A DNA stretch of 64,000 nucleotides from Dehalococcoidia bacterium (GTDB taxonomy: Bacteria; Chloroflexota; Dehalococcoidia; Plut-88900), in the NCBI GenBank assembly GCA_965207225.1, contig CBDBLV010000002.1:192001-256000 (forward strand), written 5' to 3'. Positions 5,792 through 63,047 of the stretch are shown piece by piece; position 1 is the first letter of the stretch, and the number at the start of each line of letters is the position of its first letter. The notes beneath the pieces are model-generated. The model saw nothing but the letters and a program-made list of their open reading frames with translations. It was not told the DNA's origin and searched no databases. A program made the translations under genes and the position numbers.

Positions 5792-6958
5792 TCAGTCGAA
5801 TACCCTGATGATGTCGTAGGAGGTGGTGCGTTGGGCCGGGACCCGGCCCATGTCCTTAATCAGCTTCTGGAACTCCTCGGGGGACATGTATTGGCCGTAG
5901 GGAGCGCCCGCAGACCGGGAGATCTTTTCGTTCATGAGTGTGCCACCGAAGTCGTTGGCGCCGGCGTTAAGGCAGACCTGGGCGAACTTCTGGCCCAGTT
6001 TGACCCACGAGACCTGGATGTTCTTGATCCAGTTGTTGAGCATGATGCGGGAAATGGCGTGCATCCTGAGGTCTTCCATGCCGGTGGGCCCGGGCCTCAC
6101 TCCTCCCTGCTGGTACAGGGGCGAGTCCCAGTGGACGAATCCCAGGGGCACAAACTCGGTAAAGCCGCCCGTTTCCTTCTGGATGTCCCGGATAAGGGCG
6201 ATGTGGTTGGCCCAGTGGACCGGGGCGTCGATGTGGCCGTACATGATGGTGGAGGTGGAGGGCAGCCCGACGTCGTGGGCGGTCTTGATAACCTCTGTCC
6301 ATTTCTCGGCGCTGAGCTTGTTCTTGGTGAGGCGCTGCCGAATCTCGGTGTCCAGTATCTCGGCGGCGGTGCCGGGTATCGAGCCCAGCCCGACCTCCTT
6401 CACCATGAGGAGGAAGTCCCGGATGCTGAGGCCCGTCTTCTTGCTACCGTATTGCACCTCGAAGGGGGAGAAGGCGTGGATGTGGATGCCCGGGACCCGA
6501 TCCTTGATGGCAATGACCATGTCCCGGTACTCGTAGCCGGTCATCTTGGGGTGGAGGCCACCCTGCATACAGACCTCGGTGGCGCCGGCTTCCCATGCTT
6601 CCTCGGCGCGGTCAGCGACCTGCTCTATGGTGAGGGTCTCGGCTTCCTCATCGCCGAAGTGCTTGGCGAAGGCACAGAACTTGCAGCCCGTATAACAGAT
6701 GTTGGTGAAGTTGATGTTCCGCACGGTCACGAAGGTAACCATGTCGCCGACGGTGCGCTTTCGGAGCTCGTTGGCGGTGGCGCAGAGGGCATGGAGTTCA
6801 AGGTCGGTGGCGGAGAAGAGGGTTATGGCCTCATCCACCTCGATATCGTAACCGTTGAGGGCCTTGTCGAGAATTCGGGCGGTCTCCGGTTCGATCACCG
6901 ACATAAGCCTGTCGATACCGGTGTCAAGGGCGCCGGGCAAAGCGGCATCAATTACCAT
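5792..6958 (-). CDS. cofH: FO synthase subunit CofH (radical SAM; F420 biosynthesis)
   Basis: NINFTNICYTGCKFCAF, GTAAEILD, NIQVSWVKLG, GANDFGGTLMNE; adjacent to cofG. Confidence 0.92.
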   Translation of the reverse strand: MVIDAALPGALDTGIDRLMSVIEPETARILDKALNGYDIEVDEAITLFSATDLELHALCATANELRKRTVGDMVTFVTVRNINFTNICYTGCKFCAFAKHFGDEEAETLTIEQVADRAEEAWEAGATEVCMQGGLHPKMTGYEYRDMVIAIKDRVPGIHIHAFSPFEVQYGSKKTGLSIRDFLLMVKEVGLGSIPGTAAEILDTEIRQRLTKNKLSAEKWTEVIKTAHDVGLPSTSTIMYGHIDAPVHWANHIALIRDIQKETGGFTEFVPLGFVHWDSPLYQQGGVRPGPTGMEDLRMHAISRIMLNNWIKNIQVSWVKLGQKFAQVCLNAGANDFGGTLMNEKISRSAGAPYGQYMSPEEFQKLIKDMGRVPAQRTTSYDIIRVFD

Positions 6959-8151
6959 CGGGTCTCCTCATCCTTAACGTAGCCGTCCCCGTCTATGAAG
7001 TCCAGGACAGCATTCTCCATAGCGGGGTTTAAATAGCCGGACTTTTCCACGATGTATTCGGGGTAGATGGCGAGCCTTTCTCGCAGGTCGTAGCCGAGGG
7101 CCTGGGTGCGGTCCTTCAGTTCGGTGATCATGGGCCAGGCCTTCTCCGGGTTGATGAAGTCCCTGGTGACTGGGGAAACACCGCCCCAGTCGTTGATGCC
7201 AGAGGCCAGGTAGAACTGGTAGGCATCGGCGGTGAGGTTGGGAGGAGCCTGGATGTTCATTTCGGTTCCGAGGACGAGACGGGCCACAGCTATTGTGACG
7301 GCCATGTCCACGGCGGAGGGTTCGCTGTAGGCCCTCATTCGGGTGTCGGGCTTGGCGCGGAAGTTCTGGATGATGACTTCCTGGATGTGGCCGTAGTCTT
7401 CCTGGAGGTGCTTGATGGCGAAGAGGGTGTCGACGCGCTCATCAAGGGTCTCACCTATGCCGATGAGCATGCCCGTAGTGAAGGGGACTCGCAGTTCGCC
7501 GGCATAGCGCATGGTCTCAAGGCGGATGCGAGGGTCCTTGCCGATGCTGCCGAAGTGGGCCTGGCCTCTTTCCAGGAGTCGGGGGCTGGCATTTTCGAGC
7601 ATGAGGCCCATGCTGACGGTGACCTCTCGGAGGCGGGCGACCTCCTCGGGTTCGAGGACGCCGGAGTTGGAGTGGGGCAGGAGGCCGGTTTCTTCGAAGA
7701 CCAGACGGCACATGTCCACGAGGTAGTCGGTCATGGAGGGATACCCGAGCTCCTGGAGGTGGGTGCGGGCCAGCCTGTGTACGTCTTCGGGCTTTTCACC
7801 GAGGCTGAAGAGAGCCTCCTTGCAACCGGCGCGGCGACCGGCCTTCGCCACGGCGAGGACTTCGTCGGGGGTCATGGTCTTGGCGTCGGGGTGCTTGGGG
7901 CCCTTGACGAAGGTGCAGTATCCGCAGCGGTCCCGACAGAGGTTGGTAAGGGGGATGAAGACCTTTCGGGAGTAGGCGACACGACGCCCCTTGGTCCTTT
8001 CGGTGAGCCTGGCGGAGCAGGCCAGGAGAGCGGGGATATCGGGGCCCTGGACCCGGATGAGGCTGCAGGCGTCCTCCCTGGATACGGGCCTGCCATCCAG
8101 GGCGTCTTCGAGGAGACGCTGGACAGGGGTATCGGTGGAAAGGTAGACCAA
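6952..8151 (-). CDS. cofG: FO synthase subunit CofG (radical SAM)
   Basis: YSRKVFIPLTNLCRDRCGYCTF, EVIIQNFRAKP, IQAPPNL, GINDWGGVSP. Confidence 0.93.
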   Translation of the reverse strand: MVYLSTDTPVQRLLEDALDGRPVSREDACSLIRVQGPDIPALLACSARLTERTKGRRVAYSRKVFIPLTNLCRDRCGYCTFVKGPKHPDAKTMTPDEVLAVAKAGRRAGCKEALFSLGEKPEDVHRLARTHLQELGYPSMTDYLVDMCRLVFEETGLLPHSNSGVLEPEEVARLREVTVSMGLMLENASPRLLERGQAHFGSIGKDPRIRLETMRYAGELRVPFTTGMLIGIGETLDERVDTLFAIKHLQEDYGHIQEVIIQNFRAKPDTRMRAYSEPSAVDMAVTIAVARLVLGTEMNIQAPPNLTADAYQFYLASGINDWGGVSPVTRDFINPEKAWPMITELKDRTQALGYDLRERLAIYPEYIVEKSGYLNPAMENAVLDFIDGDGYVKDEETRW

Positions 8152-8248
8152 GGGTGTCTCCGGGAGCGGCGGTTACCGTAGAGTCGTCAAGGTCGGGTGC
8201 GGGGTCACAAATCGGGGGTCAAACAGGCGTCGCATCGGGATGGGCGTG

Positions 8249-8277
8249 AGTCTATCCGCGCACCTGGGGAATGTCAA
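8249..8277 (-). promoter_or_regulatory. Putative sigma70 promoter for cofGH
   Basis: TTGACA-17 nt-TAGACT on minus strand. Confidence 0.55.
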
Positions 8278-8343
8278 ATGACCGGGGGCCGGGCTATTCG
8301 GTTGTGGGGGTGGGGTTTTGATTGTTCTTTCGGGTTTTGGGTC

Positions 8344-8673
8344 GGCGATGGAAGGTCCGGGACTCAGGCGCAGGGGGGCGGGTATGCCTGCCCTGCGGAT
8401 ATTCGGCGGGTCTATGGTTAGGTGAACGGGTCAGGCAGTCCACCATAGAGGTTGAACCACCGAAAGAGCGGGCAAAGCCCGCCAGAGTCGTCGTGGTAGA
8501 CGCCAGAGGAATCCGACTTATCGACGGGATTCCCAACAAGGCCTGTTGCGGCCTTCAGACGTGCCGACAAGGTCAATGCCGGTGGCGTAGATGCGGTTCT
8601 TGCGGTATCCGCACAGACGGCATGCTCTTTCAAAGAGAGTGCACCGTAAGAGTATTGTGGACCTTCCATCGCC
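8344..8673 (-). ncRNA. Putative structured ncRNA, copy 1 of a three-member family
   Basis: Perfect 15-bp inverted repeat GGCGATGGAAGGTCC (8344-8358 / 8659-8673) enclosing multiple hairpins; homologous to 17291-17599 and 62631-63041. Confidence 0.6.
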
Positions 8674-8901
8674 TGGATGGATGGGGAAGGGGCACGGGAC
8701 CCGTGGTGAGGAGACAACACTCTTAGCTTGAGCCTCGGGCCTGCGCGAGGGCCGTTGGGATGGGCCAGGGCGTTGAGTCCCCCGACCCCCGACTGCTCGG
8801 GGGCAGGCTTTCTCGGGGGCGATGCCTTGGGTCGGGTCTCGGGGCTTCCCTGGGTTTTTGGTTCCTCCTTGTGTTACTGAATTTCTGTTCGAACGCAGGA
8901 T

Positions 8902-8930
8902 ATGATAGTACGGTCGGACAGATGTGTCAA
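8902..8930 (-). promoter_or_regulatory. Sigma70 promoter upstream of element copy 1
   Basis: TTGACA-17 nt-TATCAT; nearly identical at 17114-17142. Confidence 0.7.
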
Positions 8931-8973
8931 GGGCAAATGTGCGGCTTTTTGGGGAGAATATCCCCCCGGTCCT

Positions 8974-9125
8974 CCCCAAGGGAACCCTCACCCCCTTGGT
9001 CCCTCTCTCCCCCGTATCGGAGTACGGGGCAGGCTCAGGGCCTATAAGGGAGAGGGGGAGAGGAGAACAGAGGCCCGCGTGGGTGCGACGCACCCACGCG
9101 GGCCTCTAGTTCAGTACTGGGGGAG
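8974..9125. repeat. ~150-bp palindromic cassette; inverted copy at 62159-62310, partial copy at 63461-63540
   Basis: Shared CCCAGTACTGAACTAGAGG...GTGGGTGC/GCACCCAC...CCCTCTCCCTT...GGGGGTGAGGGTTCCC. Confidence 0.85.
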
Positions 9126-9169
9126 GGATGGTTCGGTTTTGAAGGAGCGATCCAAGTCTTAGCGTGTAT

Positions 9170-9620
9170 GGCGGACAGGGTACCCACGAGGGGCACCCCT
9201 ACAGGGAGGGATAAATATGAGTCCCACCCGCCCGCCCTGTTTTATTTGAATTATCAGAAATGCTGCCAAGCAGCATTTCTGATAATTCGTTACCAGGGGG
9301 GATGTCAGGAAGAAGTGAGAGTGGCAAGGATTGGGGTAGGGTTAAGGAGGGGCGCTTGAGATTCCTCGCGGAGCCTCGGGATGACAAGAGGGGAAGGTGG
9401 TTGTTGGTGATGGAAGGGCGAGACGGGTTGACAAGGTGTGGGGCACCCCCCGCTGCCCCGGGATCACCCTCACCCCAGCCCTCTCCCGTCGAGGGAGAGG
9501 GGGTAAGGACACCCCACCCAACCCCGCAGGATGGATTCCGGCTCGGGGGCCGGAATGACGGGAGGAAGGGGGTCGGAATGATGGGAAAGGAAGGTTGGGA
9601 TGGTAGGAGGGTTGGGTGTG
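9170..9620. repeat. Mosaic of REP-like short palindromes
   Basis: GTAG-GGGTGCCC/GGGTACCC (minus), 19-bp perfect hairpin 9248-9288, TGTCATCCCGAGG...GAG(G/A)ATCTC unit shared with 63062 and 63242, CCCTCTCCC...GGGAGAGGG. Confidence 0.7.
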
Positions 9621-9665
9621 ATATCATCGAAGTGACCCCAGAGACGCCCTTTTTTCGGAGGAAGC

Positions 9666-10025
9666 ATGAACGTAATTGACCCTGAAAACATCGCCAAGCA
9701 GATAAGCACCATGCCCATATTCACTGGGGGAGAAGTGAAGGTGCAGCCACTGGTGAGCACGGAGCACACCGACACCCTGAACATGCTGCACGTTCACTTC
9801 GCGGCCGGGGCCCGGACGAAGTTCCACACCCATACCAACGACCAGGTCCTGCTGGCCACCGAGGGAGAGGGGATAGTCGCGACACGGGAGCGGGAGCAGG
9901 TGATGACGCCGGGGATGGTGATCCACGTGCCGCCCGGAGAGGTGCACTGGCACGGGGCGACGAAGCACTCGGCGTTTTCCCACATTTCCATCAACCCTGC
10001 GATGGAAACCGAGATAGTTGAATAG
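9666..10025 (+). CDS. Cupin-domain protein
   Basis: ARTKFHTH...Q.L...GEG, PGEVHWHGA. Confidence 0.88.
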   Translation: MNVIDPENIAKQISTMPIFTGGEVKVQPLVSTEHTDTLNMLHVHFAAGARTKFHTHTNDQVLLATEGEGIVATREREQVMTPGMVIHVPPGEVHWHGATKHSAFSHISINPAMETEIVE

Positions 10026-10046
10026 GCGGCGCAAGTGAAAGCAAAC

Positions 10047-10466
10047 ATGAATTGTCCCAGGTGCGACGTGGGCCTGGATATCGAGCAGCACAAGGGCATA
10101 GAGATCGACAGGTGCCCTCGATGCGAGGGCCTGTGGCTGGACCACGTGGAGCTAGACCAGCTGGAGGACACTGCGTTCGACAAGGACGAGCTGAAGGGGA
10201 TGATGGAGTACAACCCCCGGACGAGCGAAATCGACTGCCCGAGGTGCGGGGCCCGGATGACGACCTTCAACTACCGGGCCTACAACCTGCCGATTGACAC
10301 CTGCAAGGAAGAGCACGGGTACTGGCTGGACAAGGGCGAGGACAAGCGGGTCATAGAGATAATGAAGCAGCGGATCAAGGACCTGGACCGGAAATCCAAG
10401 GCAGAAGCGCAGTGGTACGGATTTCTGTCGAAGCTGGGCAGGAAGAAGGGCGGGCTTTTCGGATAG
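10047..10466 (+). CDS. Tandem zf-TFIIB zinc-finger protein
   Basis: Two repeats: CPRC...IDRCPRCEGLWLD and CPRC...IDTC...HGYWLD. Confidence 0.85.
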   Translation: MNCPRCDVGLDIEQHKGIEIDRCPRCEGLWLDHVELDQLEDTAFDKDELKGMMEYNPRTSEIDCPRCGARMTTFNYRAYNLPIDTCKEEHGYWLDKGEDKRVIEIMKQRIKDLDRKSKAEAQWYGFLSKLGRKKGGLFG

Positions 10467-10628
10467 GGCCCGTGTCCATTGGCTTAGGGCGGGCTTGGTA
10501 TAATGGTTGAGTCGGGGGGAGTTCCACAGACAATGCGAGGTCCCAGGGGACCCGCGAATTTCACGTAACGGGTATCGGGAGGCCCTTTTAGTCCTGGCAG
10601 AGGCCTCAGCCTGGAGGGAGATGAGACC

Positions 10629-10937
10629 ATGCTTGTACGGGTGCTTATAGAGAGACACATCAAAGAGGGCCACGAGTCCGAGGCGGCGGACAAGATCCTG
10701 GAGATGAGAAAGCAGGCCACGACTTTTCCGGGCTATGTGTCGGGGGAGACGCTGGCCGACACGGCAGACCACCAGACGGTGATTATCGTCAGCACGTGGC
10801 ACTCCAGGGAAGACTGGCAGAAGTGGGACGCCAGCCCGGAGCACCGGGCATCCGCCAAATCGCTGGAGCCGCTTCTTGAGGGGCCGGCGACCGTGAGGAC
10901 GTTCGTGAACCCGTGGGATGCGCTGCTGGACAGCTAG
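10629..10937 (+). CDS. Antibiotic biosynthesis monooxygenase (ABM) family protein
   Basis: PGYVSGETL, STWHSREDW.KW.ASPEH. Confidence 0.8.
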   Translation: MLVRVLIERHIKEGHESEAADKILEMRKQATTFPGYVSGETLADTADHQTVIIVSTWHSREDWQKWDASPEHRASAKSLEPLLEGPATVRTFVNPWDALLDS

Positions 10938-10963
10938 CAAGCCGGACTTAGCGGTCTAGTCCT

Positions 10964-11971
10964 CTAGCTGAATAGGAAGCCTTCTTTGAGGGGGTCCCGG
11001 GGGTCGATGAGGAACTGGTGGGAACCGGTTATGTATGCCGAACCTGTAACCTCCGGTATCACCGCCGGATAGCCGTCCACCCTTCCCTCCTCCACAATCC
11101 TGCTCTTGAATACCGTGCCCAGTATGCTTTCGTTGACGAACTCCTCGCCGATGCCTATGCGGCCCTGAGCGTGAAGGAGGGCGAGTCGGGCGGAGGTGCA
11201 GGTACCGCAGGGCGACCTGTCGAAGGAGCTCTGGGCGAAGACCATCATGTTGCGGGCATGGATGCCGGGTGAAGGGTTGTCGACGTACATGATGACACCA
11301 TGCAGGGGGCTAATCCCGGCCTCGGTGGGGTGGCTGATTTCGAGCTGGTCCAGGGCGGCGTCCCGGAAAGCGATGCCGCGCTCCACAAGCCGGTTAACGT
11401 TGCCCGGCACAAGCTCCAACCCCAGCCGCTCCACGGGGAGGACCGCATAGAAATTACCGCCGTAGACGATGTCGGCAAGGACCTTGCCGCCTTGGAAATC
11501 GACTTGGACATCCTGCATATAGACAAAGGATGGCACGTTTCGCAACGTTATTTCCTTGACGTTGCCATCGTGGTCCACGGCGGCTCGGGCGTGGACCGTG
11601 CCACTCACAGTGTCGAGCCGCACCTCGGTATAGGGATGGACGGGGGTGATCCAGCCGGTCTCGATGAGGGTGGTAACGATGCCGATTGTGCCGTGACCGC
11701 ACATTCCCTGAAAGTCGAGGGAGTCCATAAACAGAACGCCGATATCGCTGTCTTCGTTAACCGGGGCCGTGATGACTGCGAGGATGATCTCCGCATTGCC
11801 GCGAGGCTCGAGAGTTAGGGCTTTCCAAACGGAGCCCAGATTTTTGGAAAAGAACTCACGCTTGTCGGCCATGGTCGGGCCCGGGATGTGGGGAATGCCG
11901 CCGGTGATCATGCGGGTGCGTTCGCCCGCAGTGTGGGAATCGATGGTGGAAATTACTCTCTGAGTCTTCAC
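10964..11971 (-). CDS. Proline racemase/hydroxyproline epimerase family (paralog B)
   Basis: DSHTAGE, MCGHG, DRSPCGTCTSAR. Confidence 0.9.
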   Translation of the reverse strand: MKTQRVISTIDSHTAGERTRMITGGIPHIPGPTMADKREFFSKNLGSVWKALTLEPRGNAEIILAVITAPVNEDSDIGVLFMDSLDFQGMCGHGTIGIVTTLIETGWITPVHPYTEVRLDTVSGTVHARAAVDHDGNVKEITLRNVPSFVYMQDVQVDFQGGKVLADIVYGGNFYAVLPVERLGLELVPGNVNRLVERGIAFRDAALDQLEISHPTEAGISPLHGVIMYVDNPSPGIHARNMMVFAQSSFDRSPCGTCTSARLALLHAQGRIGIGEEFVNESILGTVFKSRIVEEGRVDGYPAVIPEVTGSAYITGSHQFLIDPRDPLKEGFLFS

Positions 11972-11991
11972 TGCCCCTCAACCAGTTCCTT

Positions 11992-12999
11992 CTAACCCAG
12001 CAGGAAACCCTCTTTGAGCGGGTCCCGGGGGTCGATGAAGAACTGGTGGGAGCCGGTCAGGTACGCCGAGCCCGTGACCTCCGGCACGATTGCCGGATAG
12101 CCGTCCACCCGACTCTCCTCTACTATCCGGCTTCGGAAGACCGTGCCGAGAATGCTTTCGTGGATGAACTCTTCGCCCACGCCGATTCTGCCCTGGGCGT
12201 GAAGAAGGGCCAGCCGGGCGGAGGTGCCGGTGCCGCAGGGCGACCTGTCGAAGGAATGCTGGGCAAAGGTCATGATGTTGCGGGCATGAATGCCGGGGGA
12301 GGGGTTGTCGACGTACATCTCGACACCGTGCAGGGGGTTGATTCCGGGCTCGGTGGGATGACTGATTTCAAGCTGGTCCCGAGCGGCGTCCCGGAAAGCG
12401 ATGCCGCGCTCCACGAGCCTGCCGACATTGCCGGGGGCCAGCTCCAGGCCCAGACGCTCCACGGGCAGAATCGCAAAGAAGTTTCCGCCGTATACGATGT
12501 CCGTCAGGACTTTCCCTCCGTCGAAGTCGACCTGGGCGTCCTGCATGTAGACGAAGGATGGGACGTTACGCAGTGTCACTTCCTTGACGTTGCCCTCGTG
12601 GTCCACGGCGGCCCGGGCGTACACCGAGCCGGTCAGGGTGTCGAGCCGCACCTCGGTATAGGGATGGACGGGGGTGATCTGGCCGGTCTCGATGAGCGTT
12701 GTGACGATGCCGATTGTGCCGTGGCCGCACATGCCTTCGAAGCCGAGGGAGTCCATGAACATAACGCCGATATCGCTGCCTTCGTTCACGGGATCGGTAA
12801 TCACTGCGACGATGATCTCGGCATCTCCGCGGGGCTCTAGGGTGAGGACCTTGCGGACGAAATCCAGGTTTTGGGAGAAGAACTCCCGCTTGTCGGCCAT
12901 GGTCGGGCCCGGGATGTTGGGGATGCCGCCGGTGACCATGCGCGTGCGTTCGCCCGCGGTGTGGGAATCTATGGTTGAGATAATCCTCTGAGCCTTCAT
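11992..12999 (-). CDS. Proline racemase/hydroxyproline epimerase family (paralog A)
   Basis: DSHTAGE, MCGHG, DRSPCGTGTSAR; start set at ATG 12999 by alignment to paralog B. Confidence 0.9.
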   Translation of the reverse strand: MKAQRIISTIDSHTAGERTRMVTGGIPNIPGPTMADKREFFSQNLDFVRKVLTLEPRGDAEIIVAVITDPVNEGSDIGVMFMDSLGFEGMCGHGTIGIVTTLIETGQITPVHPYTEVRLDTLTGSVYARAAVDHEGNVKEVTLRNVPSFVYMQDAQVDFDGGKVLTDIVYGGNFFAILPVERLGLELAPGNVGRLVERGIAFRDAARDQLEISHPTEPGINPLHGVEMYVDNPSPGIHARNIMTFAQHSFDRSPCGTGTSARLALLHAQGRIGVGEEFIHESILGTVFRSRIVEESRVDGYPAIVPEVTGSAYLTGSHQFFIDPRDPLKEGFLLG

Positions 13000-13100
13000 G
13001 ACCCTGCCCCCGATGCCAAGTGTGGGGCCATTGTACAACAGGCGCGGGTGATAATATGAGGTCGGGTTTCGGCCCCAGACCAGGAGCAAGGAGAGTCGTC

Positions 13101-13439
13101 ATGCCGTTCTATGACCCGAAGGCGCTGAAGGGCAAGGAGATTGCGCCGGGGGCGCATATACAGCCGTTGTGGGGAGACAAGGTGATGATGGTGTACATCA
13201 CGCTGGAGCCCGGGGCGGAGGTGCCCCTCCATACCCATCCCCACGAGCAGGCCGGCATGTGCCTGGAGGGAGAGTTCGAGCTGACGATAGACGGTGAAGC
13301 GCGGATGGTGAAGGAAGGGGACGCCTACCTTGTGCCGTCGGGGGTGGAGCACCGGGCGGTGGCGATTTCGGGTCGGGCGTTGGCGCTGGACATCTTTGCG
13401 CCGCCTCGGGAGGACTTCATAGCGCTGTTGGAGGATTGA
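13101..13439 (+). CDS. Cupin-domain protein
   Basis: PLHTHPHEQ...GVEH...DIFAPPREDF; AGGAG RBS before ATG 13101. Confidence 0.88.
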   Translation: MPFYDPKALKGKEIAPGAHIQPLWGDKVMMVYITLEPGAEVPLHTHPHEQAGMCLEGEFELTIDGEARMVKEGDAYLVPSGVEHRAVAISGRALALDIFAPPREDFIALLED

Positions 13440-13669
13440 ATAAAACGCGTCGATGCATTCCAAAACCCCTTGGAAAGGGAGTCGGGTTGTAGTATAGTCA
13501 CGGGAACTAAGCTGTTCAGTCATCCGCTCGGGCCTCTAATTTTTCTATTGGAAAGGGGGTGGGCAGGGTAGGCAAACCGTTAGTTCATCTTGGCGGATTC
13601 CGAGGACCAACACCCGGCGGTCGCCAATAACTCTTTCCCTCGGAAATAACAGAAACTACGGAGGATGCT

Positions 13670-14173
13670 ATGGCTTGGGAATACTACCTGGGTTCCCTGC
13701 GGTGGTTACACATAATCGCAGGGATTACCTGGATCGGGCTCCTTTACTACTTCAACTTTGTCCAGACCCCTTCGTTCCCCAAATTTGAAGGCAGCTCAAG
13801 GCGAGACGCTTTCATAAACCTGGTGCCGACGGCCCTGTTCTGGTTCCGGTGGGCTGCCCTCGTCACCATGTTTGCCGGAGTCGCGTGGATACTGTCCCGC
13901 GGCGTACAGCTTGGCTGGGACGGCTACGTGGGGTCGAATGCGTTCAACTCGATAACGATAGGCGCGGGCCTCGGGACGATCATGTTCCTGAACGTCTGGC
14001 TGATAATCTGGCCGAACCAGAAGAAGATTATCCAGGCCAACAAGGACGGAGAGGCCCCGGACCCCGCGTGGGTCAGCGCGGCGGGACAGGCCTCCCGGGT
14101 CAACACGCTTCTGTCCATCCCGATGCTCTTCTTCATGATCGCCGCCAGGCACCTGGGGGTCCTCTGGAGCTAG
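13670..14173 (+). CDS. Urate hydroxylase PuuD-like membrane protein (N-terminal domain only)
   Basis: RWLHIIAGITWIGLLYYFNFVQ, WFRWAA, GTIMFLNVWLIIWPNQKK, SRVNTLLSIPMLFFM. Confidence 0.82.
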   Translation: MAWEYYLGSLRWLHIIAGITWIGLLYYFNFVQTPSFPKFEGSSRRDAFINLVPTALFWFRWAALVTMFAGVAWILSRGVQLGWDGYVGSNAFNSITIGAGLGTIMFLNVWLIIWPNQKKIIQANKDGEAPDPAWVSAAGQASRVNTLLSIPMLFFMIAARHLGVLWS

Positions 14174-14214
14174 AGCTAACGCAGGCAATACCTGTTTAAC
14201 GAAGGAGACGACAC

Positions 14215-14520
14215 ATGGAAGCGTTGCTAAAACCGATCTTTGCCGTATACGACCTGATTGCCAAGCCGCTGGCCGCGGTGCTCGAGCAAGTGCTCAAGGC
14301 GATCATGTCGATATTCGATGCGATTACACCGATACTCAGCCTGCCCTTCAAGATTCTAGAGATGATAATGCAGGTGTTTGAAGCTCCCTATGCAGCCATT
14401 TTCTCGCCGATATACAGGCCCTTCGGCGGGATACTGAGCGACCACAGGCTGGTCATCCTGACAGGGCTGCTGATGCTGGGGGTATTCATCCTGGTCATCA
14501 GGCTCACGCACGGGCTGTAA
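14215..14520 (+). CDS. Hypothetical amphipathic-helix membrane protein
   Basis: AAGGAG RBS; hydrophobic periodic N-terminus and a C-terminal TM helix. Confidence 0.7.
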   Translation: MEALLKPIFAVYDLIAKPLAAVLEQVLKAIMSIFDAITPILSLPFKILEMIMQVFEAPYAAIFSPIYRPFGGILSDHRLVILTGLLMLGVFILVIRLTHGL

Positions 14521-14543
14521 ACAGCACGGATACCGCTTGTGGA

Positions 14544-14578
14544 AAAAGGGGCCTCCCGCAAGTCGGGAGGCCCCTTTG
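14544..14578. terminator. Intrinsic terminator-like hairpin
   Basis: AAAAGGGGCCTCCCG-caagt-CGGGAGGCCCCTTT. Confidence 0.75.
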
Positions 14579-14654
14579 CCATGCCCCGCCCCTAGACCCG
14601 TTTTTTAGCCCTGATGTATACTTTCGACAAATATCCCCCCACAGGAATTCGCCC

Positions 14655-15797
14655 ATGAAAGTTGTCTGTCTCCAAGAGAATTTAAGCGCCGCGCTGTCTG
14701 AAGTCGGGAGGGCGGTGGCGTCACGAACACCCCTTCCAATCACGAGCAATGTCCTGATATCTACGGACAACGGGCGTCTGCGGCTGTCGGCGACCAACCT
14801 GGAGCTGACGATAACCAACTGGATCGGGGCTAGGGTGGAGGAGGACGGGGTGGTAACGGTGCCGGCGCGGCTGTTGACGGAGTTCGTCGGGTCTCTGCCG
14901 TCGGAGGAGGTGACGCTGAACAGTGAGTCGGGGGGGAAGAGCCTGAACGTGACCTGCGCCCGGTTCGAGGCCAACATCTCGGGCACCGACCCCGAGGAGT
15001 TCCCCCCAACGCCGACCGTCGAGGACGGCCTGGAGGTGGATATTGCCCCGGACATGCTGAAGCAGGCGATAGACGGGGTGGCCTTCGCAGCAGCGACGGA
15101 AGACTCGAGGCCCGTGCTCACGGGGGTGCAGATCGAGCTCAAAGAGGGGACATTGGTGCTGGCGGCGGCGGACGGGTTCCGGCTGGCGGTGCACGAGACG
15201 AAGGTCGGGGAGGAGCTGCCGGATGGCGGCGCAATAATCGTCCCCGCGAAGTCGCTGCAGGAGGCGAGCCGGCTGTCGTCGGGGAAAGACCAGCCGGTCA
15301 AGATCAAGGTCAACGAAGGCAAGACCCAGGTGCTGTTCCAGTTCGAGAATGCGGCTGTGGTCTCCCAGCTCATACAGGGCACGTTCCCCAACTACAGCCA
15401 GCTGGTGCCGAAGGAGCACGCATCGAAGACTACGGTGGACGTGGGAGAGTTCGCGAGGGCTACGCGGGCGGCCTCGATATTTGCCCGGGACGGCAGCGGG
15501 ATCGTGCGGCTGCAGACTTCCGAAAGTGGAGAGGACAACGTGGGAGGGCTGTCGATTTCGGCCCGCTCAGAAGAGGTCGGGGACAACCAGGGTGAGATTT
15601 CCGCCACGGTGGAGGGAGACGCGGCGAAGATTGCCTTCAACAGCAAGTACCTGACGGAGGTGCTGGGCGTTCTGGGACACGGGATGGTGGCACTGGAAAC
15701 GTCCAGCCCGTCGAGCCCCGGGGTGCTGAGACCCGTATCTCCCAGCGAGGGCGTGACCTATGTTCACGTCGTCATGCCCATGTTCGTCCAGTGGTAG
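14655..15797 (+). CDS. dnaN: DNA polymerase III beta clamp
   Basis: SATNLE, SRPVLTGV, AADGFRLA, GTFPNY, IAFNSKYL, VVMPM. Confidence 0.96.
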   Translation: MKVVCLQENLSAALSEVGRAVASRTPLPITSNVLISTDNGRLRLSATNLELTITNWIGARVEEDGVVTVPARLLTEFVGSLPSEEVTLNSESGGKSLNVTCARFEANISGTDPEEFPPTPTVEDGLEVDIAPDMLKQAIDGVAFAAATEDSRPVLTGVQIELKEGTLVLAAADGFRLAVHETKVGEELPDGGAIIVPAKSLQEASRLSSGKDQPVKIKVNEGKTQVLFQFENAAVVSQLIQGTFPNYSQLVPKEHASKTTVDVGEFARATRAASIFARDGSGIVRLQTSESGEDNVGGLSISARSEEVGDNQGEISATVEGDAAKIAFNSKYLTEVLGVLGHGMVALETSSPSSPGVLRPVSPSEGVTYVHVVMPMFVQW

Positions 15798-15866
15798 CCT
15801 GACCAGTCGCCGCCGCGTTTCCCGCTTCGGCCGGGGTCTTTTTCCTATTCAGCAGGGAGGTGCAAC

Positions 15867-16973
15867 ATGACCAGTGATCCAGCAGCTACAAGGGACCAGC
15901 GAATCGCGTCGCTGAAGATCATCGACGAATACTATTGGATGCTATTGCGGCATCTCACGATACATACGCGGGCGAGACTGGGGGAGCCGGGGATGAAGGC
16001 CCTGGGTGAAGGGTTCCGGCTGGCCGGTCGGTACAGGGGTCAGTCGATGGCGGAGGACCCGGCGACATTGGCGTCGGGGAACGACGCATTGTCTCTGCTC
16101 AGGGCGTGGGACGTGGCGGACCTGGCCTTTGCGCACCCGGACTCGGTGGTGGAGGTGGAGGGCGGGCCTGCTGCGGCGACGGTCATGCTGCCGAGCGTGC
16201 CGGGGAGCGAGTACTTTGCGAAGCGAGGCGGGGCGGAGATCCTGGCATTGTACTGGAGCAATACGCTGCAGGGGATTGCCGAGGGATTTGACGAGGAGAT
16301 GTCCGTGTCGCATACGGAGATACCGGCGGACGGGTCCGGGCCTATGGCGATAACGTTTTCGTATGCGGGAGATACCGCGGGGGCCTCTGGGGAGATGCCC
16401 AGGGACAGGCTGGCAGACGTTGCGTCATCGATCCTGTTTTCGCGCAGGACCTTTGGGGTGTTCGGGGCGTTGGGCATGTACGTGGCCCGGGCGATGGAGG
16501 ATAATTTTGACGCTACTGCTGAGAAGCTGATGCGTGAGGCGTTGTACGATTTCGGGTATGAGCGGGGGGAGGGGATGAAGGCAGAGGCGGTTTCGAGCGA
16601 AATGCCGCTCGACTTCGAGACGTGGACGGACATTATCAGCCGGCGTGACCCGAACTCCACTTGCTTCGTGTTCAAGGGGTCCAGTCACGTGTCTCCTGGG
16701 GTAATGCACACGACGTGCACCTACTGCCCCTGCGCGGAGGTCTGGGCCGAAGAGGGGCACCAGGGCCTGGCCTTTGGATACATCTACGACACGGAAGTGC
16801 ACCGGGGGCTGGTGGAGGCCTTTGACCCCAACGGCGTGGTGGGGTGGTCCAAGGTGAAGACCCGGGGCGACAAGGTGTGCGACTTCCGGTTCATATTGCC
16901 GTCGCTGGTCACGAAGTCGGACCCGGAGTGGGCGCAGCAACAGGGGAGGATTCGGACGCCTGTCGAAGGGTAG
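15867..16973 (+). CDS. L-2-amino-thiazoline-4-carboxylate hydrolase-like (V4R/H-NOX-like) protein, two tandem domains
   Basis: C-terminal 'ALYDFGYERG...YCPCAEVW...GDKVCDFRF'; N-terminal half repeats the layout. Confidence 0.6.
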   Translation: MTSDPAATRDQRIASLKIIDEYYWMLLRHLTIHTRARLGEPGMKALGEGFRLAGRYRGQSMAEDPATLASGNDALSLLRAWDVADLAFAHPDSVVEVEGGPAAATVMLPSVPGSEYFAKRGGAEILALYWSNTLQGIAEGFDEEMSVSHTEIPADGSGPMAITFSYAGDTAGASGEMPRDRLADVASSILFSRRTFGVFGALGMYVARAMEDNFDATAEKLMREALYDFGYERGEGMKAEAVSSEMPLDFETWTDIISRRDPNSTCFVFKGSSHVSPGVMHTTCTYCPCAEVWAEEGHQGLAFGYIYDTEVHRGLVEAFDPNGVVGWSKVKTRGDKVCDFRFILPSLVTKSDPEWAQQQGRIRTPVEG

Positions 16974-17113
16974 GCCGGTCTCGCGGGTTGGGCATAGGTG
17001 GCTATGCGGGCCATCGTTTCCCCCTCACCCTGGCTCTCTCCCGGTCTATGCACCTCCCAGGGAAAGGGTTAAGGGGAGAGCTCACTCTCCCCTCATAAGC
17101 CGCACATTTGCTC

Positions 17114-17142
17114 TTGACACACCTGTCCGACAGTACTATCAT
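17114..17142 (+). promoter_or_regulatory. Sigma70 promoter upstream of element copy 2
   Basis: TTGACA-17 nt-TATCAT. Confidence 0.7.
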
Positions 17143-17290
17143 ATCCTGCGGTCGAACAAATATCTGATAATAAAAGGAGGAACCAAAACCCCGGGGAGGC
17201 CCGAGCACGACCCAGAGGATGTAACCCCCGAGACGTCGGGGACGCCATCTCCTCACCCCACGGGTCCCGTGCTCCTTCCCCATCCATCCA

Positions 17291-17599
17291 GGCGATGGAA
17301 GGTCCACAACATTAAACGGCACGCTCCTCACTTAGGAGCCCTGCCGAAAAACCTCGGGCCTTATGGCCCTTGGAAAAATCTCCCCCGTCGTTCCCCTCGG
17401 AGATTCCCATTAACCCAGCGACGGCAGCGAGAAAACACCTCCCCACCCCTCCGAGTGGGTCAGGAAAACTGAGAAACTGGTGGTAGAGACGCCCTCAGGC
17501 GAGGTCTCCTCGCTTGTCTGCCATGTGACACAGGAACACGGGGCTGAACCAGGCTGGCCTCCCGCCCCCTGAAAACCGAGTCCCGGACCTTCCATCGCC
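17291..17599 (+). ncRNA. Putative structured ncRNA, copy 2
   Basis: Identical 15-bp closing stem GGCGATGGAAGGTCC (17291-17305) / GGACCTTCCATCGCC (17585-17599); flanks homologous to copy 1. Confidence 0.6.
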
Positions 17600-17789
17600 G
17601 ACCCCCTCCAAAACAGACAGAACGAAAATGAAAACCCCACAACTGAATAGGAACCCGGCGCATCACCAACCAGCCCAACCAGCGCAGCATATAGCGTTCC
17701 ACCCGGCTAAGGAGTACCATTACGCAGGCCCCAATTCTGCCAACCCCATGACAGGACCCAGACCCGTGAGCAGCCGGTAGGAGACACCC

Positions 17790-18956
17790 ATGGAGTACAA
17801 GATCATATCTGCGGACACCCACCTGGACACCGCTTGGCTTCCCGGCGACCTCTTCACCGATAACGCCCCCGCTCACCTCAGGGACAAGATGCCCTACGTG
17901 ACCGAGGGCAAGCACGGCGGCAAGGTCTGGGAGATCGGGGGTGAGTACATGTGCGGCGCGGGCGTCGGGGGCAACCTCACGCAGGACTTTGCCGCCTACG
18001 TCCCCGGCCAGTCCCATCACCTTGACCGCATGGCTGAGGTCGGCTTCTTCGAAGGCCAGGAGGACGGCATCTACCACCCCTCCGACCCCGAGCTCCGCAT
18101 CAAGGACCAGGACATAGACGGCGTGGACGCCGAGGTGGTCTACGGCATCCTTGGAATTGGCGGAGGCGGTTTTTCCGGGCCTGGTTTCAGGGACTTTGAG
18201 GTCACCACCGCCATCTACGACGTTTACAATAAATGGGTTTCCGACCTGTTTCGACCATACTCCAACCGGATAGCGGGCCTCGGGTGCCTCAGCAGCCACG
18301 ACCCCGATGTGGCCGCCCGGCAGCTCAGGGACTGCGCCGGCCTGGGCCTCCGCGGCGCCGAGATCAACGCCGGCAAGATGCCCGACCCCGCCTACCACAA
18401 GGCATGGGAGCCCCTGTGGCAGGCCGCGTCCGACACCCAGATGCCCATTTCCTTCCACACCCTGGGCTATCCCCACCGCACCCCCGCCCCCGAGGACCAG
18501 GACGAATATGGAAGGCTGGACATGGGTCTTCGCTTCATCATGTTTCAGCTATCCGGCATCGAGTTCCTGGTGAGCATGGTCCTCTCCGGCGCCTGCGTAC
18601 GCCACCCCGATTTCCAGTTCGTGCTCGGCGAGTGTGGCATCGGCTGGATCCCTTACGTAATTGAGAGGACTGACCTCAAGTACGATGACCGGCTGTTCCA
18701 TCTCGGCTTCGATATGAAGCCCAGCGATTACTGGCGCAGACAGGGATACTCGACCTTCCAGCAGGAGTACGTCTCCACCGATGAGGTCGAGCGGATCGGC
18801 GTTGACAACATCATGTGGGGCTCCGACTACCCTCACCCCGACGGCGTCTTCCCCGATTCCGCCAGGGCCATAGACGAGGGTCTTGGGCACCTGGATGCAG
18901 CCATTCGGCAGAAGCTGATTTGCGACAACGCCGCCAGGGTGTACAAGTTCAACTAG
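17790..18956 (+). CDS. Amidohydrolase_2 family metal-dependent hydrolase/decarboxylase
   Basis: ISADTH, PISFH, GECGIGW, MWGSDYPH. Confidence 0.9.
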   Translation: MEYKIISADTHLDTAWLPGDLFTDNAPAHLRDKMPYVTEGKHGGKVWEIGGEYMCGAGVGGNLTQDFAAYVPGQSHHLDRMAEVGFFEGQEDGIYHPSDPELRIKDQDIDGVDAEVVYGILGIGGGGFSGPGFRDFEVTTAIYDVYNKWVSDLFRPYSNRIAGLGCLSSHDPDVAARQLRDCAGLGLRGAEINAGKMPDPAYHKAWEPLWQAASDTQMPISFHTLGYPHRTPAPEDQDEYGRLDMGLRFIMFQLSGIEFLVSMVLSGACVRHPDFQFVLGECGIGWIPYVIERTDLKYDDRLFHLGFDMKPSDYWRRQGYSTFQQEYVSTDEVERIGVDNIMWGSDYPHPDGVFPDSARAIDEGLGHLDAAIRQKLICDNAARVYKFN

Positions 18957-19011
18957 CCGAAATGCAAGGTCGATGCCCCTGCAACGCGCTGGCAGACACT
19001 AGGAGAGGAAT

Positions 19012-20166
19012 ATGAAATACAGCCTGATTTCCGCCGACACCCACATGGACCTCGTCTACATGCCCCCAGAGGTCTTCGTTGAGAATGCCCCATCGCACCT
19101 CAGGCACATGATGCCTCACGTAGAGGACACCGACGACGGGCCCTTCTGGATGCAGCAAGGAGACAGGGTAGTGCCTTCAGGGTTTGGTGGCCTGAACAGC
19201 GGAGAGTACAAGGAGGGCGAGGAACTGCACCTGGACCGCATGGCTGAAGTCGGCTTCTTCGACAGCATTGGGGAGGGTATTTTCCACCCCAGCAACCCCG
19301 ACCTCCGGGTCAAAGACCTCGATATTGACGGCGTCGACGCCGAGATGATGTATGGAATCCTGGAGATTGGCGCGGGCGGGCGCCTCGGCCCCGACGTTGA
19401 AGACGCAGGCGTCCTTGAAGCCACCTATGAGGTCTACAACCAGTGGGTCGCCGAATTCGTCGGCAAGAACCCCACCCGCATGAACGCCCTCGCCTGTCTC
19501 ACCCACCGGGACCCCCAGACCGCCGCCGACCAGCTCCGCAAAGCCGCCGAGCTGGGCCTCCGTGGCGCGGAGATACTCGTCCCCCCGATGATTAAGCCCG
19601 TCTACCACAAGGACTGGGATGTCTTGTGGCAGGCCGCCGCCGAGTGTCGGGTCCCCATCTCCTTCCACACCCTCGGCGGCCAGTTCTCCAGGCCCAAACC
19701 CGGTGAGGAGCAGGAGTACAAATACGTAGTCAGGGGGCTGGGCGAAGCTCTGTTTCAGATCGCCGGCTCCGAGTTCCTGATCAGCGTAATCCTATCCGGC
19801 GCATGCGAGAGGTTCCCGGACTTCAACTGGGTCCTCGGCGAATGTGGCATCGGTTGGATACCCTACATCGTCGAAAGGACCGACATAGAATACGACGACC
19901 GGCTGTTCCAGCTAGGGCTGGAGATGAAGCCCAGCGACTACTGGCGCCGCCAGGGCCATTCCACCTTCCAGGACGAATACGTCTCCATGGACGAGGTGGA
20001 GAGAATTGGCGTGGACTCCATCATGTGGGGCTCCGACTACCCCCACCCCGACGGCGTCTTCCCCGACTCCCGGGCCGTCATCAAGAAAAACCTCGGGCAC
20101 CTGCCGGATGAAATAGTCAGCCAGATCACCTGCGACAACGCCGCCAAGCTCTACCGCTTCAATTGA
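19012..20166 (+). CDS. Amidohydrolase_2 family protein (tandem paralog)
   Basis: ISADTH, PISFH, GECGIGW, MWGSDYPH. Confidence 0.9.
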   Translation: MKYSLISADTHMDLVYMPPEVFVENAPSHLRHMMPHVEDTDDGPFWMQQGDRVVPSGFGGLNSGEYKEGEELHLDRMAEVGFFDSIGEGIFHPSNPDLRVKDLDIDGVDAEMMYGILEIGAGGRLGPDVEDAGVLEATYEVYNQWVAEFVGKNPTRMNALACLTHRDPQTAADQLRKAAELGLRGAEILVPPMIKPVYHKDWDVLWQAAAECRVPISFHTLGGQFSRPKPGEEQEYKYVVRGLGEALFQIAGSEFLISVILSGACERFPDFNWVLGECGIGWIPYIVERTDIEYDDRLFQLGLEMKPSDYWRRQGHSTFQDEYVSMDEVERIGVDSIMWGSDYPHPDGVFPDSRAVIKKNLGHLPDEIVSQITCDNAAKLYRFN

Positions 20167-25803: not shown

Positions 25804-26934
25804 GTGGGAGACTACAGGATTATTTCATCTGACAATCATATAGTTGAACCCCCGGACCTGTGGACCGAGAGGCTGCCTGCTGAATATAAGGAACGCGGCC
25901 CTACGGTTAAGCACACTCCCGATGGACCCTTCTGGCACATCGATGGGCAGCCCCATTTCAACATCTTTGCTATGGGTGCACAGCCCGGCGACAGGTTGGA
26001 AGGAGACGGCAGGCTGGACCAGGTCGTGGACTGGGAAGAAGTCCGCCCAGGCGCCTACATTGGGGAAGAGGCGGTAAAGGACATGGACATAGACGGCCTG
26101 GACGTCGGCCTGGTGTACCCGAGTCTCACGATCTTCCTCTACCCCTTCGTGGAAGACACTAGCCTCCTGAATGCCATTGATAGTACATACAATGACTTCG
26201 CCGCTGAATTTTGTCAGGCCAACCCCAGACGCCTGAAGGGTGTCGCAGTCGTCAACATCGACAACATTGAAGAAGGTGTCGAGGAAATCAAGAGGTGCGT
26301 GAAGAAGGGATTTGTAGGGGTAACAATCCCTGAATACATGGCAGCCAAGAGCTACCGCTCCCGAGACTACGACCCACTCTGGGCTTGTGCCCAGGACCTG
26401 GATATCCCGCTCACGTTCCACATCTCCACGGCCAGGGTACAGGCGGGTCGGGGGTGGGACCGAGACCTGCTTGACCCCTTCGACTTCGCCAACTTCCTCC
26501 TACACAACGCCGACTTCTGGGTGCGGGTATCCCTTACCGAGGTTATCCTTAGCGGCGTCTTCGAACGCTTCCCGAAGCTGAAGATTGGTGTTGCGGAGCA
26601 TGAACTCAGCTGGATCCCCTACTGGCTGGAGCGTATGGACTTCAGCTACAACGACAGGGCCGCCGGCCAGGACGGATACCGCATACCGGGTGACCTGGCC
26701 CCCAGCGATCTCTTCCATTCCAACTGCTTCGCCGACTTCCAGGAGGACGCCCTGGGCATCCAGAACAGGGACATAATAGGCGTGGACAACATCCTCTGGG
26801 GCTCCGATTACCCCCACTCCGAGGGCACTTGGCCCAAGTCCCGAGAGTTCATCGAGACAACCCTCGCCGACTGCACCGATGAAGAAAGGGCCAAACTGGT
26901 CGGTGGCAATACGGCCAGGATCTACAACATCTAA
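25804..26934 (+). CDS. Amidohydrolase_2 family protein
   Basis: ISSDNH, PLTFH, LWGSDYPH. Confidence 0.9.
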   Translation: MGDYRIISSDNHIVEPPDLWTERLPAEYKERGPTVKHTPDGPFWHIDGQPHFNIFAMGAQPGDRLEGDGRLDQVVDWEEVRPGAYIGEEAVKDMDIDGLDVGLVYPSLTIFLYPFVEDTSLLNAIDSTYNDFAAEFCQANPRRLKGVAVVNIDNIEEGVEEIKRCVKKGFVGVTIPEYMAAKSYRSRDYDPLWACAQDLDIPLTFHISTARVQAGRGWDRDLLDPFDFANFLLHNADFWVRVSLTEVILSGVFERFPKLKIGVAEHELSWIPYWLERMDFSYNDRAAGQDGYRIPGDLAPSDLFHSNCFADFQEDALGIQNRDIIGVDNILWGSDYPHSEGTWPKSREFIETTLADCTDEERAKLVGGNTARIYNI

Positions 26935-62158: not shown

Positions 62159-62310
62159 TCCCCAGTACTGAACTAGAGGGCTACGTGGGTGCGCAGCACC
62201 CACGTAGCCCTCTGTTCTTCTTCCCCCTCTCCCTTAAAGGCCCTAAGAGCCTGCCCCGAGTCCCTCGAGGGGGAGAGGGGGATCAAGGGGGTGAGGGTTC
62301 CCCCGTGGGG
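62159..62310. repeat. Palindromic cassette, inverted homolog of 8974-9125
   Basis: Direct sequence comparison. Confidence 0.85.
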
Positions 62311-62345: not shown

Positions 62346-62374
62346 TTGCCCTACCTGAACCCCCGTGCTATACT
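62346..62374 (+). promoter_or_regulatory. Sigma70 promoter upstream of element copy 3
   Basis: TTGCCC-17 nt-TATACT with extended -10 TG; overlaps the ACATTTGC motif that precedes the -35 in copies 1 and 2. Confidence 0.6.
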
Positions 62375-62630
62375 ACGCCCCAGGCCGCCGACCTCACTCC
62401 TCGGCGACCATCACAATGCAGGATCAAAGGAGTCCCATGAGCCGCACCGGCCTACATAGGCCCCGTCTCAGCCGAGCAGCATCCCGCCGCCCGGCCCCCG
62501 GCACGCGCCTCCTCCCAGGCTCCTTTCTCTTTCCACACCCCGTCCTGCACCCCAACACTCACTACAAGCGCTGCCCAAAGGCCCAACGTCTCGGCCTTCG
62601 CAGCGATCAATCACCGCCCCGCCCCATGCA

Positions 62631-63041: not shown

Positions 63042-63047
63042 CCCCCT

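Follow-up and report, generated by a model that had tools for sequence, protein, structure and literature searches.

What are the three promoter-bearing repeats found in a 64,000-nucleotide stretch of a Dehalococcoidia genome (the window; positions 192,001 to 256,000 of contig CBDBLV010000002.1), and what do they do there? Each comprises a promoter, a leader, a core closed by two complementary arms, and a trailer, and a first-pass annotation of the window had proposed them to be members of a new family of large structured noncoding RNAs enclosing a variable cargo. Judged by sequence homology, all three cores are decayed pieces of a single segment of terL, a terminase large-subunit gene that belongs to a packaging module conserved across the class. 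The mosaic repeat family to which they belong is real, new, and absent from Rfam, and its role as RNA is predicted. At a probability of roughly 0.45, we suggest that the element is a promoter-bearing mosaic repeat that arose from terL and spread by recombination, its untranslated transcript forming a stem-closed leader ahead of host genes.

As read from the sequence, the three loci, here called copies 1, 2, and 3, lie where they had been reported, the core of copy 3 running from 62632 to 63040 (Table 1). The word GGCGATGGAAGGTCC and its reverse complement match the window four times, against 0.25 expected and with none of 100 shuffles reaching four, and copies 1 and 2 do share identical, perfect 15-nt closing arms. 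The arms of copy 3, GGAAGGTCC (62632-62640) and GGACCTTCC (63032-63040), extend to GGAAGGTCCCCGGAC and GTCCGGGACCTTCC. Each copy is preceded by a sigma70-like promoter with a 17-nt spacer that matches the consensus at 11, 11, and 9 of 12 positions, respectively, and AAGGAG lies 197, 117, and 202 nt upstream of the 5' arm. Copies 1 and 2 align in their promoter blocks (84% identity over 113 nt), 5'-arm blocks (98% over 52 nt), 3'-arm blocks (84% over 44 nt), and trailers, but not in their interiors. The first hairpin, with its two U-G/G-U positions in copy 1, also reads as described. The loci had all been called free of open reading frames (ORFs), which is wrong for copy 3, whose core lies inside an open frame of 477 codons in which an ATG follows AAGGAG.

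BLAST of all cores of the family against the host genome (G000; 4.03 Mb in five contigs, C1 to C5, 92% complete) led to a 507-codon frame at C1:233552-235072. This frame, terL, matches the PHROG terminase large-subunit families weakly (E = 1.8e-4) and has no match in Pfam. The cores are homologous to approximately residues 239 to 420, the start of the nuclease domain with its GIDLAGE motif. In tblastn searches of terL against 51 elements (see below for the census and the core types), 12 elements matched at E <= 0.005, colinearly and within residues 239 to 413. These belong to class B (E from 1e-24 for copy 3 to 1e-15), to type A3 (2e-11), to a type with a 428-nt core (2e-8), and to type A2, in which copy 1 matches over 113 residues at 8338-8601, read through stops (4e-6), and its sister copy at C4:443321 matches over 146 residues (5e-7). 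Residues 36 to 205 of the copy 3 frame are 41% identical to terL residues 194 to 367 (BLASTP E = 4e-26). Within any single frame of copy 1 only RIYATGIDLVGTSE matches terL (E = 0.009), the longer match requiring that stops be read through, and type A1, including copy 2, has no direct BLAST match to the gene at all. For these cores a DNA profile was used, with the gene segments, both intermediate fragments, and cores of B, A2, and A3 as its sources. Run against interiors stripped of their 16-nt arms, it matched 27 of 41 further ones, and among 205 shuffles the best gave E = 3.8. The matches comprise 14/14 A1 cores (E = 7e-9 to 1e-3), 5/5 of type E, 7/7 of types D and D-long, and the 428-nt type; one element was wrongly oriented in this search and could not match. 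The arm-less interior of copy 2 matches at E = 6.9e-6 over approximately 17354-17516. Thus, in at least 37 of 51 elements, what had been taken for variable cargo consists of diverged, mosaic versions of one sequence. Pfam and PHROG searches with nine stop-to-stop frames from the three copies found nothing, and such scans miss the terL origin.

The genome holds a graded series of relatives of this segment. Its two intact terL genes are 78% identical to each other, two fragments are 62 to 64% identical to terL, class B is 37 to 41% identical, and A2 and A3 are 33 to 35% identical. The two fragments (C4:456432-456962 and C5:1617180-1617722; residues 239 to 419) are each fused in frame to a class-B-type leader ORF and may be founders of the family or versions that still code. 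Class A cores are noncoding, with stops in every frame and frequent 1-nt indels among 49 aligned A1 copies; the A3 lengths of 399, 402, and 405 nt hinted at a reading frame, but these cores too have stops in all frames. Class B has kept an open frame, but at 37 to 41% identity and without the ATPase half. We therefore rejected the idea that the element encodes a TerL protein: only residues 239 to 420 are represented, and class A is interrupted by stops and frameshifts.

The closing stem has its origin in the same gene. The 5' arm corresponds to the terL codons SDDGRF (GACGATGGAAGGTTCC) and the 3' arm to GTSIV (GGAACCTCCATCGTC), and in the intact terL of the genus the two regions already pair over approximately 20 bp with two bulges (free energy, dG, -28.8 kcal/mol). 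The two G000 paralogues do not differ in their arm sequences. Among seven full-length terL copies of the genus that were inspected, most have the repeat, whereas two outgroup genes, which encode different residues there, lack it. In the elements the stem differs from that of the gene in that both arms have lost one base of a TT/AA pair and the bulged A has gained a partner. As judged by eye, the inner stem is specific to each type yet complementary within it, being AGGTCC/GGACCT in class A and AGACGCCCTGG/CCAGGTGCGTCT in C-like cores. A terminal duplex of 14 to 23 bp (median, 19 bp; dG -27 to -46 kcal/mol) was computed for 53/53 elements, the rows for terL_C5 and the two intermediate fragments being left out, whereas the 5' ends paired with interior 26-mers (n = 265) gave a median of 11 bp and -11.6 kcal/mol, and only 5/265 of these controls reached -20. 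The suggestion that the stem has been kept far better than the interior is thus borne out. Because protein identity has fallen to 33 to 41% or below detection, the pairing must have been maintained, and neutral decay cannot explain the stem; the elements are selected for pairing rather than for protein, unlike terL itself.

The same descent changes the meaning of the other shared helices. Conserved structure with divergent sequence had been offered as evidence of a functional RNA, but the three cores share an origin in a single terL segment, now decayed, and their equivalent helices mostly reflect common descent. The stem is inherited from terL, as is the first hairpin, which on reading the sequence is foreshadowed in the intact gene, and the shared helix opening at GGTGGT is a remnant of the terL FWW/FRW codons.

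The three copies belong to a large family. An exact 9-nt arm pair found 21 loci in G000, and looser arm patterns extended the census to 51; at least two more elements found later bring the number to at least 53, in at least 12 core types as defined by all-against-all BLAST of the cores. Beyond the 51 there are a copy with a short core, the fifth member of class B, and a place not counted as a full element, where an insertion sequence truncates the leader. There (C1:66973-68000), the leader ends after approximately 110 nt, and a gene resembling, by eye, an IS21-type helper ATPase lies on the opposite strand. Type A1, with copy 2, has 14 members; A2 has two, copy 1 and its sister; A3 and D have four each; D-long has three; E has five or six; the C-like type has 13, in several subtypes; class B, with copy 3, has five; and the 428-nt type has one. 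The types are mosaic: A3 and E have their 3' halves in common, and A1, A2, D, and the 428-nt type have the last hairpin in common. The unit consists of a near-consensus sigma70 promoter, a leader of approximately 100 to 300 nt with AAGGAGG, which resembles a ribosome-binding site, a core of 200 to 650 nt, and a C/A-rich trailer, and as a repeat it extends from the promoter, approximately 330 nt before the 5' arm, to some 60 to 80 nt past the 3' arm, or approximately 0.6 to 1.1 kb in all. AAGGAG occurs within 450 nt upstream of the 5' arm in 45/51 elements, a strict promoter pattern fits 28/51, and the trailers of the 51 loci are mostly C/A-rich, with 5 to 20% G. At four ordinary genes the word AAGGAGGAACC is a true ribosome-binding site followed by ATG. 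We compared G000 with eight further genomes of the genus (G001 to G008), three from other genera of the family, and 29 from other families of the class. A BLASTN search that took the A1 core as its query matched all eight of the former, at 12 to 24 places each, and none of the 32 genomes outside the genus, so the family appears to be restricted to the genus. The proposal of a multicopy, promoter-equipped family without a counterpart in Rfam therefore stands: Rfam 15 at the gathering score found only two tRNAs in the 64-kb window, and nothing credible at E values up to 10 in 8100-9100. Copies 1 and 2 had no BLASTN match among 50,697 phage records, and literature searches at the level of titles and abstract openings found no description of such a family.

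The source gene is far more widespread than the repeat. Matches to terL occur in 33/41 genomes of the class. Outside the genus there is usually one full-length copy, 39 to 57% identical; inside it there are 8 to 32 matches per genome, of which one to five are full length. The outgroup order is a terS-like gene, a small ORF, terL, a helix-turn-helix (HTH) gene, and a portal gene (PHROG 64, E = 6e-32), and the terS-like/terL/HTH/portal module is conserved across the class, for example at G000 C5:239497-242756, at locus L108 of G011 (6054-9948), and at locus L107 of G025. One of the two full-length terL copies of G000 adjoins a portal gene whose product is 70% identical to that of another genus, a value similar to those of housekeeping proteins such as RecA (76 to 77%). 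These comparisons suggest a packaging module that is passed on vertically and may resemble a gene transfer agent, rather than a prophage. The other copy forms a unit of promoter, terS-like gene, small ORF, and terL that sits between rpmH and a prenyltransferase gene. The two units are homologous from the promoter to the stop codon; a full-length unit thus duplicates as the fragments do. Hairpin modules that are ubiquitous in the genome flank both units and could serve as landing homology for such duplication.

The sites of the elements were examined in G000 and its sister species. At 40 of 50 evaluable loci, the best-scoring downstream ORF (by codon usage, within a 2.6-kb search window) lies on the strand of the element, and three of the ten exceptions, gyrB, leuS, and an ORF of 965 amino acids, are artefacts of the search window. 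The downstream genes are unrelated, including, by Pfam, those for RecA, peptide deformylase, MoaA, catalase-peroxidase, a radical-SAM enzyme, and an amidohydrolase, and, as named by eye, those for NusA, GyrB, LeuRS, and others. No terminator-like site was found on the sense strand between copy 1 or copy 2 and its gene. The radical-SAM gene below copy 1 has orthologues in 12/12 genomes of the family. Upstream of it lie an A2 element in G000, an A3 element in G008, and C-like cores with a different inner stem in G005 and G007, and there is no element in G001, G002, G003, G004, or G006. The gene's own promoter is kept in all species of the genus, and since it directly follows the upstream gene in G001, the locus in that genome represents an empty site. 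At recA there is an A3 element in G000, an A1 element in G008, and an A2-like element in G007, and G005 and five others lack one. G000 and G008 share 99% identity in RecA and approximately 97% in the flanks, the exchanged segment being confined between the arms. Because cores are swapped or absent at the same sites in sister species, they act as cassettes that are exchanged faster than species diverge, and the simplest mechanism would be gene conversion between copies through the conserved blocks beside the arms. Comparison with empty sites shows no visible target-site duplication at the junctions. A riboswitch or other dedicated cis-regulatory leader would be associated with one gene family across species; here the downstream genes are unrelated, and at the same gene the element is absent or of another core type, which rules out that interpretation. 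Independently of the element, an array of 9- to 11-nt repeats resembling TTCAATCAA lies approximately 30 to 200 nt upstream of recA (G000 C5:104.5 kb) in G000, G008, and G005, and it may be a protein-binding array.

Table 1. Features of the three loci and their surroundings (positions are those of the window)
Feature	Position	Strand	Remarks
Radical-SAM gene downstream of copy 1, 399 amino acids	6952-8151	-	on the strand of the element; PF04055, E = 8e-17
Radical-SAM gene's own promoter, TTGACA-17-TAGACT	8249-8277	-	10/12; outside the repeat; kept in element-free G001 and G004
Copy 1 trailer, C/A-rich, ending GAATAG	8294-8343	-	C+A 0.76, G 0.14
Copy 1 3' arm, GGACCTTCCATCGCC	8344-8358	-	terL G(T/P)SIV codons
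Copy 1 core, type A2, 330 nt	8344-8673	-	noncoding decayed terL fragment with 15-bp closing stem; terminal duplex 19 bp, dG -34.2; minimum free energy of core -143.3
Copy 1 5' arm, GGCGATGGAAGGTCC	8659-8673	-	terL SDDGRF codons
Copy 1 leader, mosaic of short modules including palindromic hairpins	8674-8901	-	length and modules vary between copies and species
Copy 1 leader motif AAGGAGG	8864-8870	-	no start codon after it (sequence reading)
Copy 1 promoter, TTGACA-17-TATCAT	8902-8930	-	11/12; 0.2 sites expected in shuffles
Palindromic hairpin module flanking copy 1	8972-9088		mosaic repeat; shared with 62160-62302
Copy 2 promoter, TTGACA-17-TATCAT	17114-17142	+	11/12
Copy 2 core, type A1, 309 nt	17291-17599	+	arms 17291-17305 and 17585-17599
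Copy 2 trailer, C/A-rich, ending GAATAG	17600-17650	+	
Amidohydrolase gene downstream of copy 2	17790-18956	+	same strand; PF04909, E = 1.5e-27
Copy 3 promoter-like site, TTGCCC-17-TATACT	62346-62374	+	9/12; TG before the -10 hexamer
Copy 3 open frame from ATG	62437-63792	+	477 codons stop to stop; runs through core and 180-nt tandem repeats
Copy 3 core, class B, 409 nt	62632-63040	+	stem GGAAGGTCCCCGGAC / GTCCGGGACCTTCC; terminal duplex 14 bp, dG -27.3

The window contains other repeats near the copies. Palindromic hairpin modules flank the elements at 8972-9088, 62160-62303, and 63453-63541 and recur throughout the window and the genome; the one at 8972-9088 gave only spurious, miRNA-like matches in Rfam. 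Behind copy 3, within its open frame, are two 180-nt tandem units that are 92% identical (63048-63407), followed by a perfect 19-bp hairpin with a T run (63410-63451). Paralogous amidohydrolase genes lie at 18018-20160, 26077-26865, and 33623-34456, two of them in tandem at a spacing of 1,210 nt.

On the reading that we prefer, a terL fragment of the conserved phage-like packaging module, which has lost its coding function and in every copy has kept, perfected, or extended its closing stem, would have spread by recombination. The promoter of the element would fire toward the downstream host gene, and the untranslated RNA would fold into a compact multi-hairpin domain closed by the 15- to 23-bp stem. 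The unit would thus act as a portable promoter with a structured 5' leader, much as Correia elements do, the closing stem being a likely site for a double-strand-specific RNase or an insulator. Such an element would be neither a retron nor a riboswitch, nor an RNA dedicated to acting in trans. Action as RNA rather than as DNA is favored by the promoter, by the strand bias, and by the distance of 300 to 600 nt between the arms, too great for a cruciform. The fold of copy 2 is stronger on the sense strand (z score, -6.8) than on the antisense strand (-3.3). In the alignment of 49 A1 sequences from seven genomes, 94.4% of the cells pair, against approximately 41% when the partner is slid, under a reference structure folded from the sense strand of one of those sequences.

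Several observations weigh against this reading. Covariation within A1 is modest: ten pairs show double changes against 5.1 +/- 1.4 in shuffles, none of 500 shuffles reaching ten, and the covariation score is reached by 36/500. The strand-specific wobble that had been put forward as a mark of RNA is present in copy 1 and is weak in the family as a whole, with 268 G-U against 105 A-C cells falling in only 37 against 29 column pairs, a count biased by the derivation of the structure from the sense strand; so weak an asymmetry leaves room for pairing at the DNA level. The 13 C-like elements gave no terL signal with the DNA profile and may carry a different cargo. The leader does not resemble the terS-like ORF1 significantly (E = 0.79 and 6.8), and we dropped the idea that it derives from terS. 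Both of the downstream genes examined keep their own promoter below the element, so the element is not needed for their expression, and its rapid gain, loss, and swapping argue against a locus-specific role. Finally, the features that have been kept are those of the intact gene, which would better fit a function tied to the terminase, at the level of either RNA or DNA, than a generic leader.

A further explanation, which we consider unlikely, is that a piece of terL has become some 50 promoter-driven structured elements that keep nothing but the internal long-range fold of the gene and act through it on the packaging machine, as decoy RNAs that tune terminase activity or as scattered entry sites that determine which parts of the chromosome are packaged and exchanged. 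In either form, the element would steer gene transfer among these sponge-associated bacteria and also be carried by it. In its RNA form, which is likewise an unlikely one, the elements would be exapted, stand-alone structured RNAs that mimic a regulatory fold in terL mRNA and titrate or guide a factor of the terS-terL-portal machine. The approximately 20-bp stem (dG -28.8) and the first hairpin do exist in intact terL, which is single-copy, conserved in 33/41 genomes of the class, and adjacent to terS and portal genes. Every copy retains a strong promoter; one core type can stand in for another at a locus, as it should if what counts is the pool alone; and the C-rich, G-poor, unstructured trailer could, on general grounds, be an entry site for Rho, although its composition may simply be inherited, because past the arm the coding strand of terL also has much C and little G (C 0.43, G 0.18). 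Strong interior differences between the types fit this explanation poorly, as does the strand bias toward the downstream gene, which it does not require. Antisense action is impossible because the terL fragment is in the sense orientation, and the lack of the stem in the terL genes of the outgroup leaves an ancient regulatory fold without support. The corresponding DNA-level explanation holds that the inverted repeat is read on DNA, as a pac-like entry site for terminase or a recombination site, and spreads by preferential packaging or recombination, the RNA being irrelevant. We regard it as distinctly improbable. It accommodates the descent from a packaging gene whose intact form already holds the repeat, the exchange bounded by the arms, the different site occupancy of close species, and the weak wobble asymmetry. 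However, the pac sites that are known belong to terS and not to terL, arms 300 to 600 bp apart cannot extrude as a cruciform, and a conserved near-consensus promoter and a strand bias would be left without a role. Contigs assembled from four DNA runs over 7000-19000 rise in depth over the repeats and break at the arms; in run X1, for example, one contig ends at 8359 and the next spans 8374-8682, which could speak for a DNA site but shows only that the arms are branch points between versions of the repeat. No excision or inversion joint is listed among the contigs of these four runs, which drop rare variants, and all 49 A1 cores from seven genomes have the same orientation relative to the flanks and the leader. 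The absence of any inverted core among them counts against a DNA-level site and led us to reject an invertible promoter.

It could also be that the elements are plain pseudogene debris, decaying duplicates of a terS-terL operon in which the structure is an incidental, unselected legacy; we think this about as improbable as a DNA site. The graded series from intact genes at 78% identity to A1 cores undetectable by BLAST, the inherited C-rich composition, and the modest covariation within a type are what such debris would show. Neutral decay would nevertheless destroy a 15-bp repeat, and 53/53 elements keep 14 to 23 bp; the stem is more perfect than that of the gene, with compensating changes between types; the promoter is retained; and some 50 dispersed copies upstream of genes would go unexplained. 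Much the least probable is the analogy, drawn in the first-pass annotation, with a retron-like msr-msd RNA, or with a stem by which a variable cargo RNA is excised or circularized. Downstream of a promoter, the two ends of the core do pair into a long closing stem, and a1/a2-like repeats occur in 53/53 elements, a feature that does not define the retron family by itself. The cargo, however, is one decayed gene fragment rather than arbitrary sequence, Rfam yields no ribozyme or retron-type match, and no reverse transcriptase gene adjoins any of the 51 elements. The six PF00078 matches in G000 amount to four ORFs of 572 to 614 amino acids with, by eye, maturase-like and HNH-like tails, resembling group II intron proteins. 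These reverse transcriptase ORFs (C2:158087-158773, C5:1548409-1549095, C5:1553608-1554405, and C5:1671488-1672288), two of which have identical match scores, probably belong to group II introns.

How does the element, taken as a portable promoter and leader, compare with known systems? Correia elements (CREE) are approximately 100 to 155 bp long. As described in PMC2649163, CREE of Neisseria are intergenic, multicopy, and bounded by inverted repeats; they can supply promoters and are cotranscribed with their neighbors, their stem is bound or cut by RNase III, and their presence or absence alters the expression of adjacent genes. Whereas CREE have inverted repeats at their termini and promoters at their ends, the units described here have an internal repeat, a promoter 150 to 300 nt upstream of it, and a length of approximately 0.6 to 1.1 kb; moreover, their core descends from a protein-coding gene, and no target-site duplication is seen. 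We therefore suggest, jointly with and at the same tentative strength as the preferred reading, that the element would work like a Correia element without being a member of that family. The terminal inverted repeats at the unit ends and the target-site duplications that mark miniature inverted-repeat transposable elements and Correia elements are both lacking. In the search for mobilizing enzymes, which covered Y1 (IS200-type TnpA) and TnpB/IscB-type (PF07282) genes among transposase families, neither had a match in G000. In their modularity, with short palindromic modules reordered and homogenized between copies, the units resemble the bacterial interspersed mosaic elements (BIMEs) built from repetitive extragenic palindromes in E. 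coli and its relatives. BIMEs are short, promoterless, and mostly located at the 3' ends of genes, unlike the present units, which lie at 5' ends and have a promoter and a structured core of 200 to 650 nt. Like OLE, ROOL, GOLLD, raiA, and HEARO/omega RNAs, the elements are several hundred nucleotides long with many hairpins, and HEARO is multicopy as well. None of those families matched in Rfam; they show rich covariation and are not known to descend from a coding gene, and G000 has no match to the TnpB/IscB-type genes. With terL genes and pseudogenes the elements are homologous, but they represent a fragment only, are frameshifted and interrupted by stops in class A, have their own promoter, and are amplified approximately 50-fold.

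Helices that appear equivalent between copies that hardly align can be the legacy of a gene and are not by themselves proof of selection on RNA, a caution for the discovery of RNA families in general. The class-wide terS-terL-portal module may point to an undescribed gene-transfer-agent-like system. If the preferred reading holds, the family would be a clear bacterial case of a coding sequence that lost its protein and survived as structure, with the graded series from intact to unrecognizable preserved within one genome. On the same reading, members of the genus seed approximately 1% of their genome with strong outward promoters whose shuffling between loci outpaces the divergence of species, which would provide these uncultured symbionts with a ready source of variation in gene expression.

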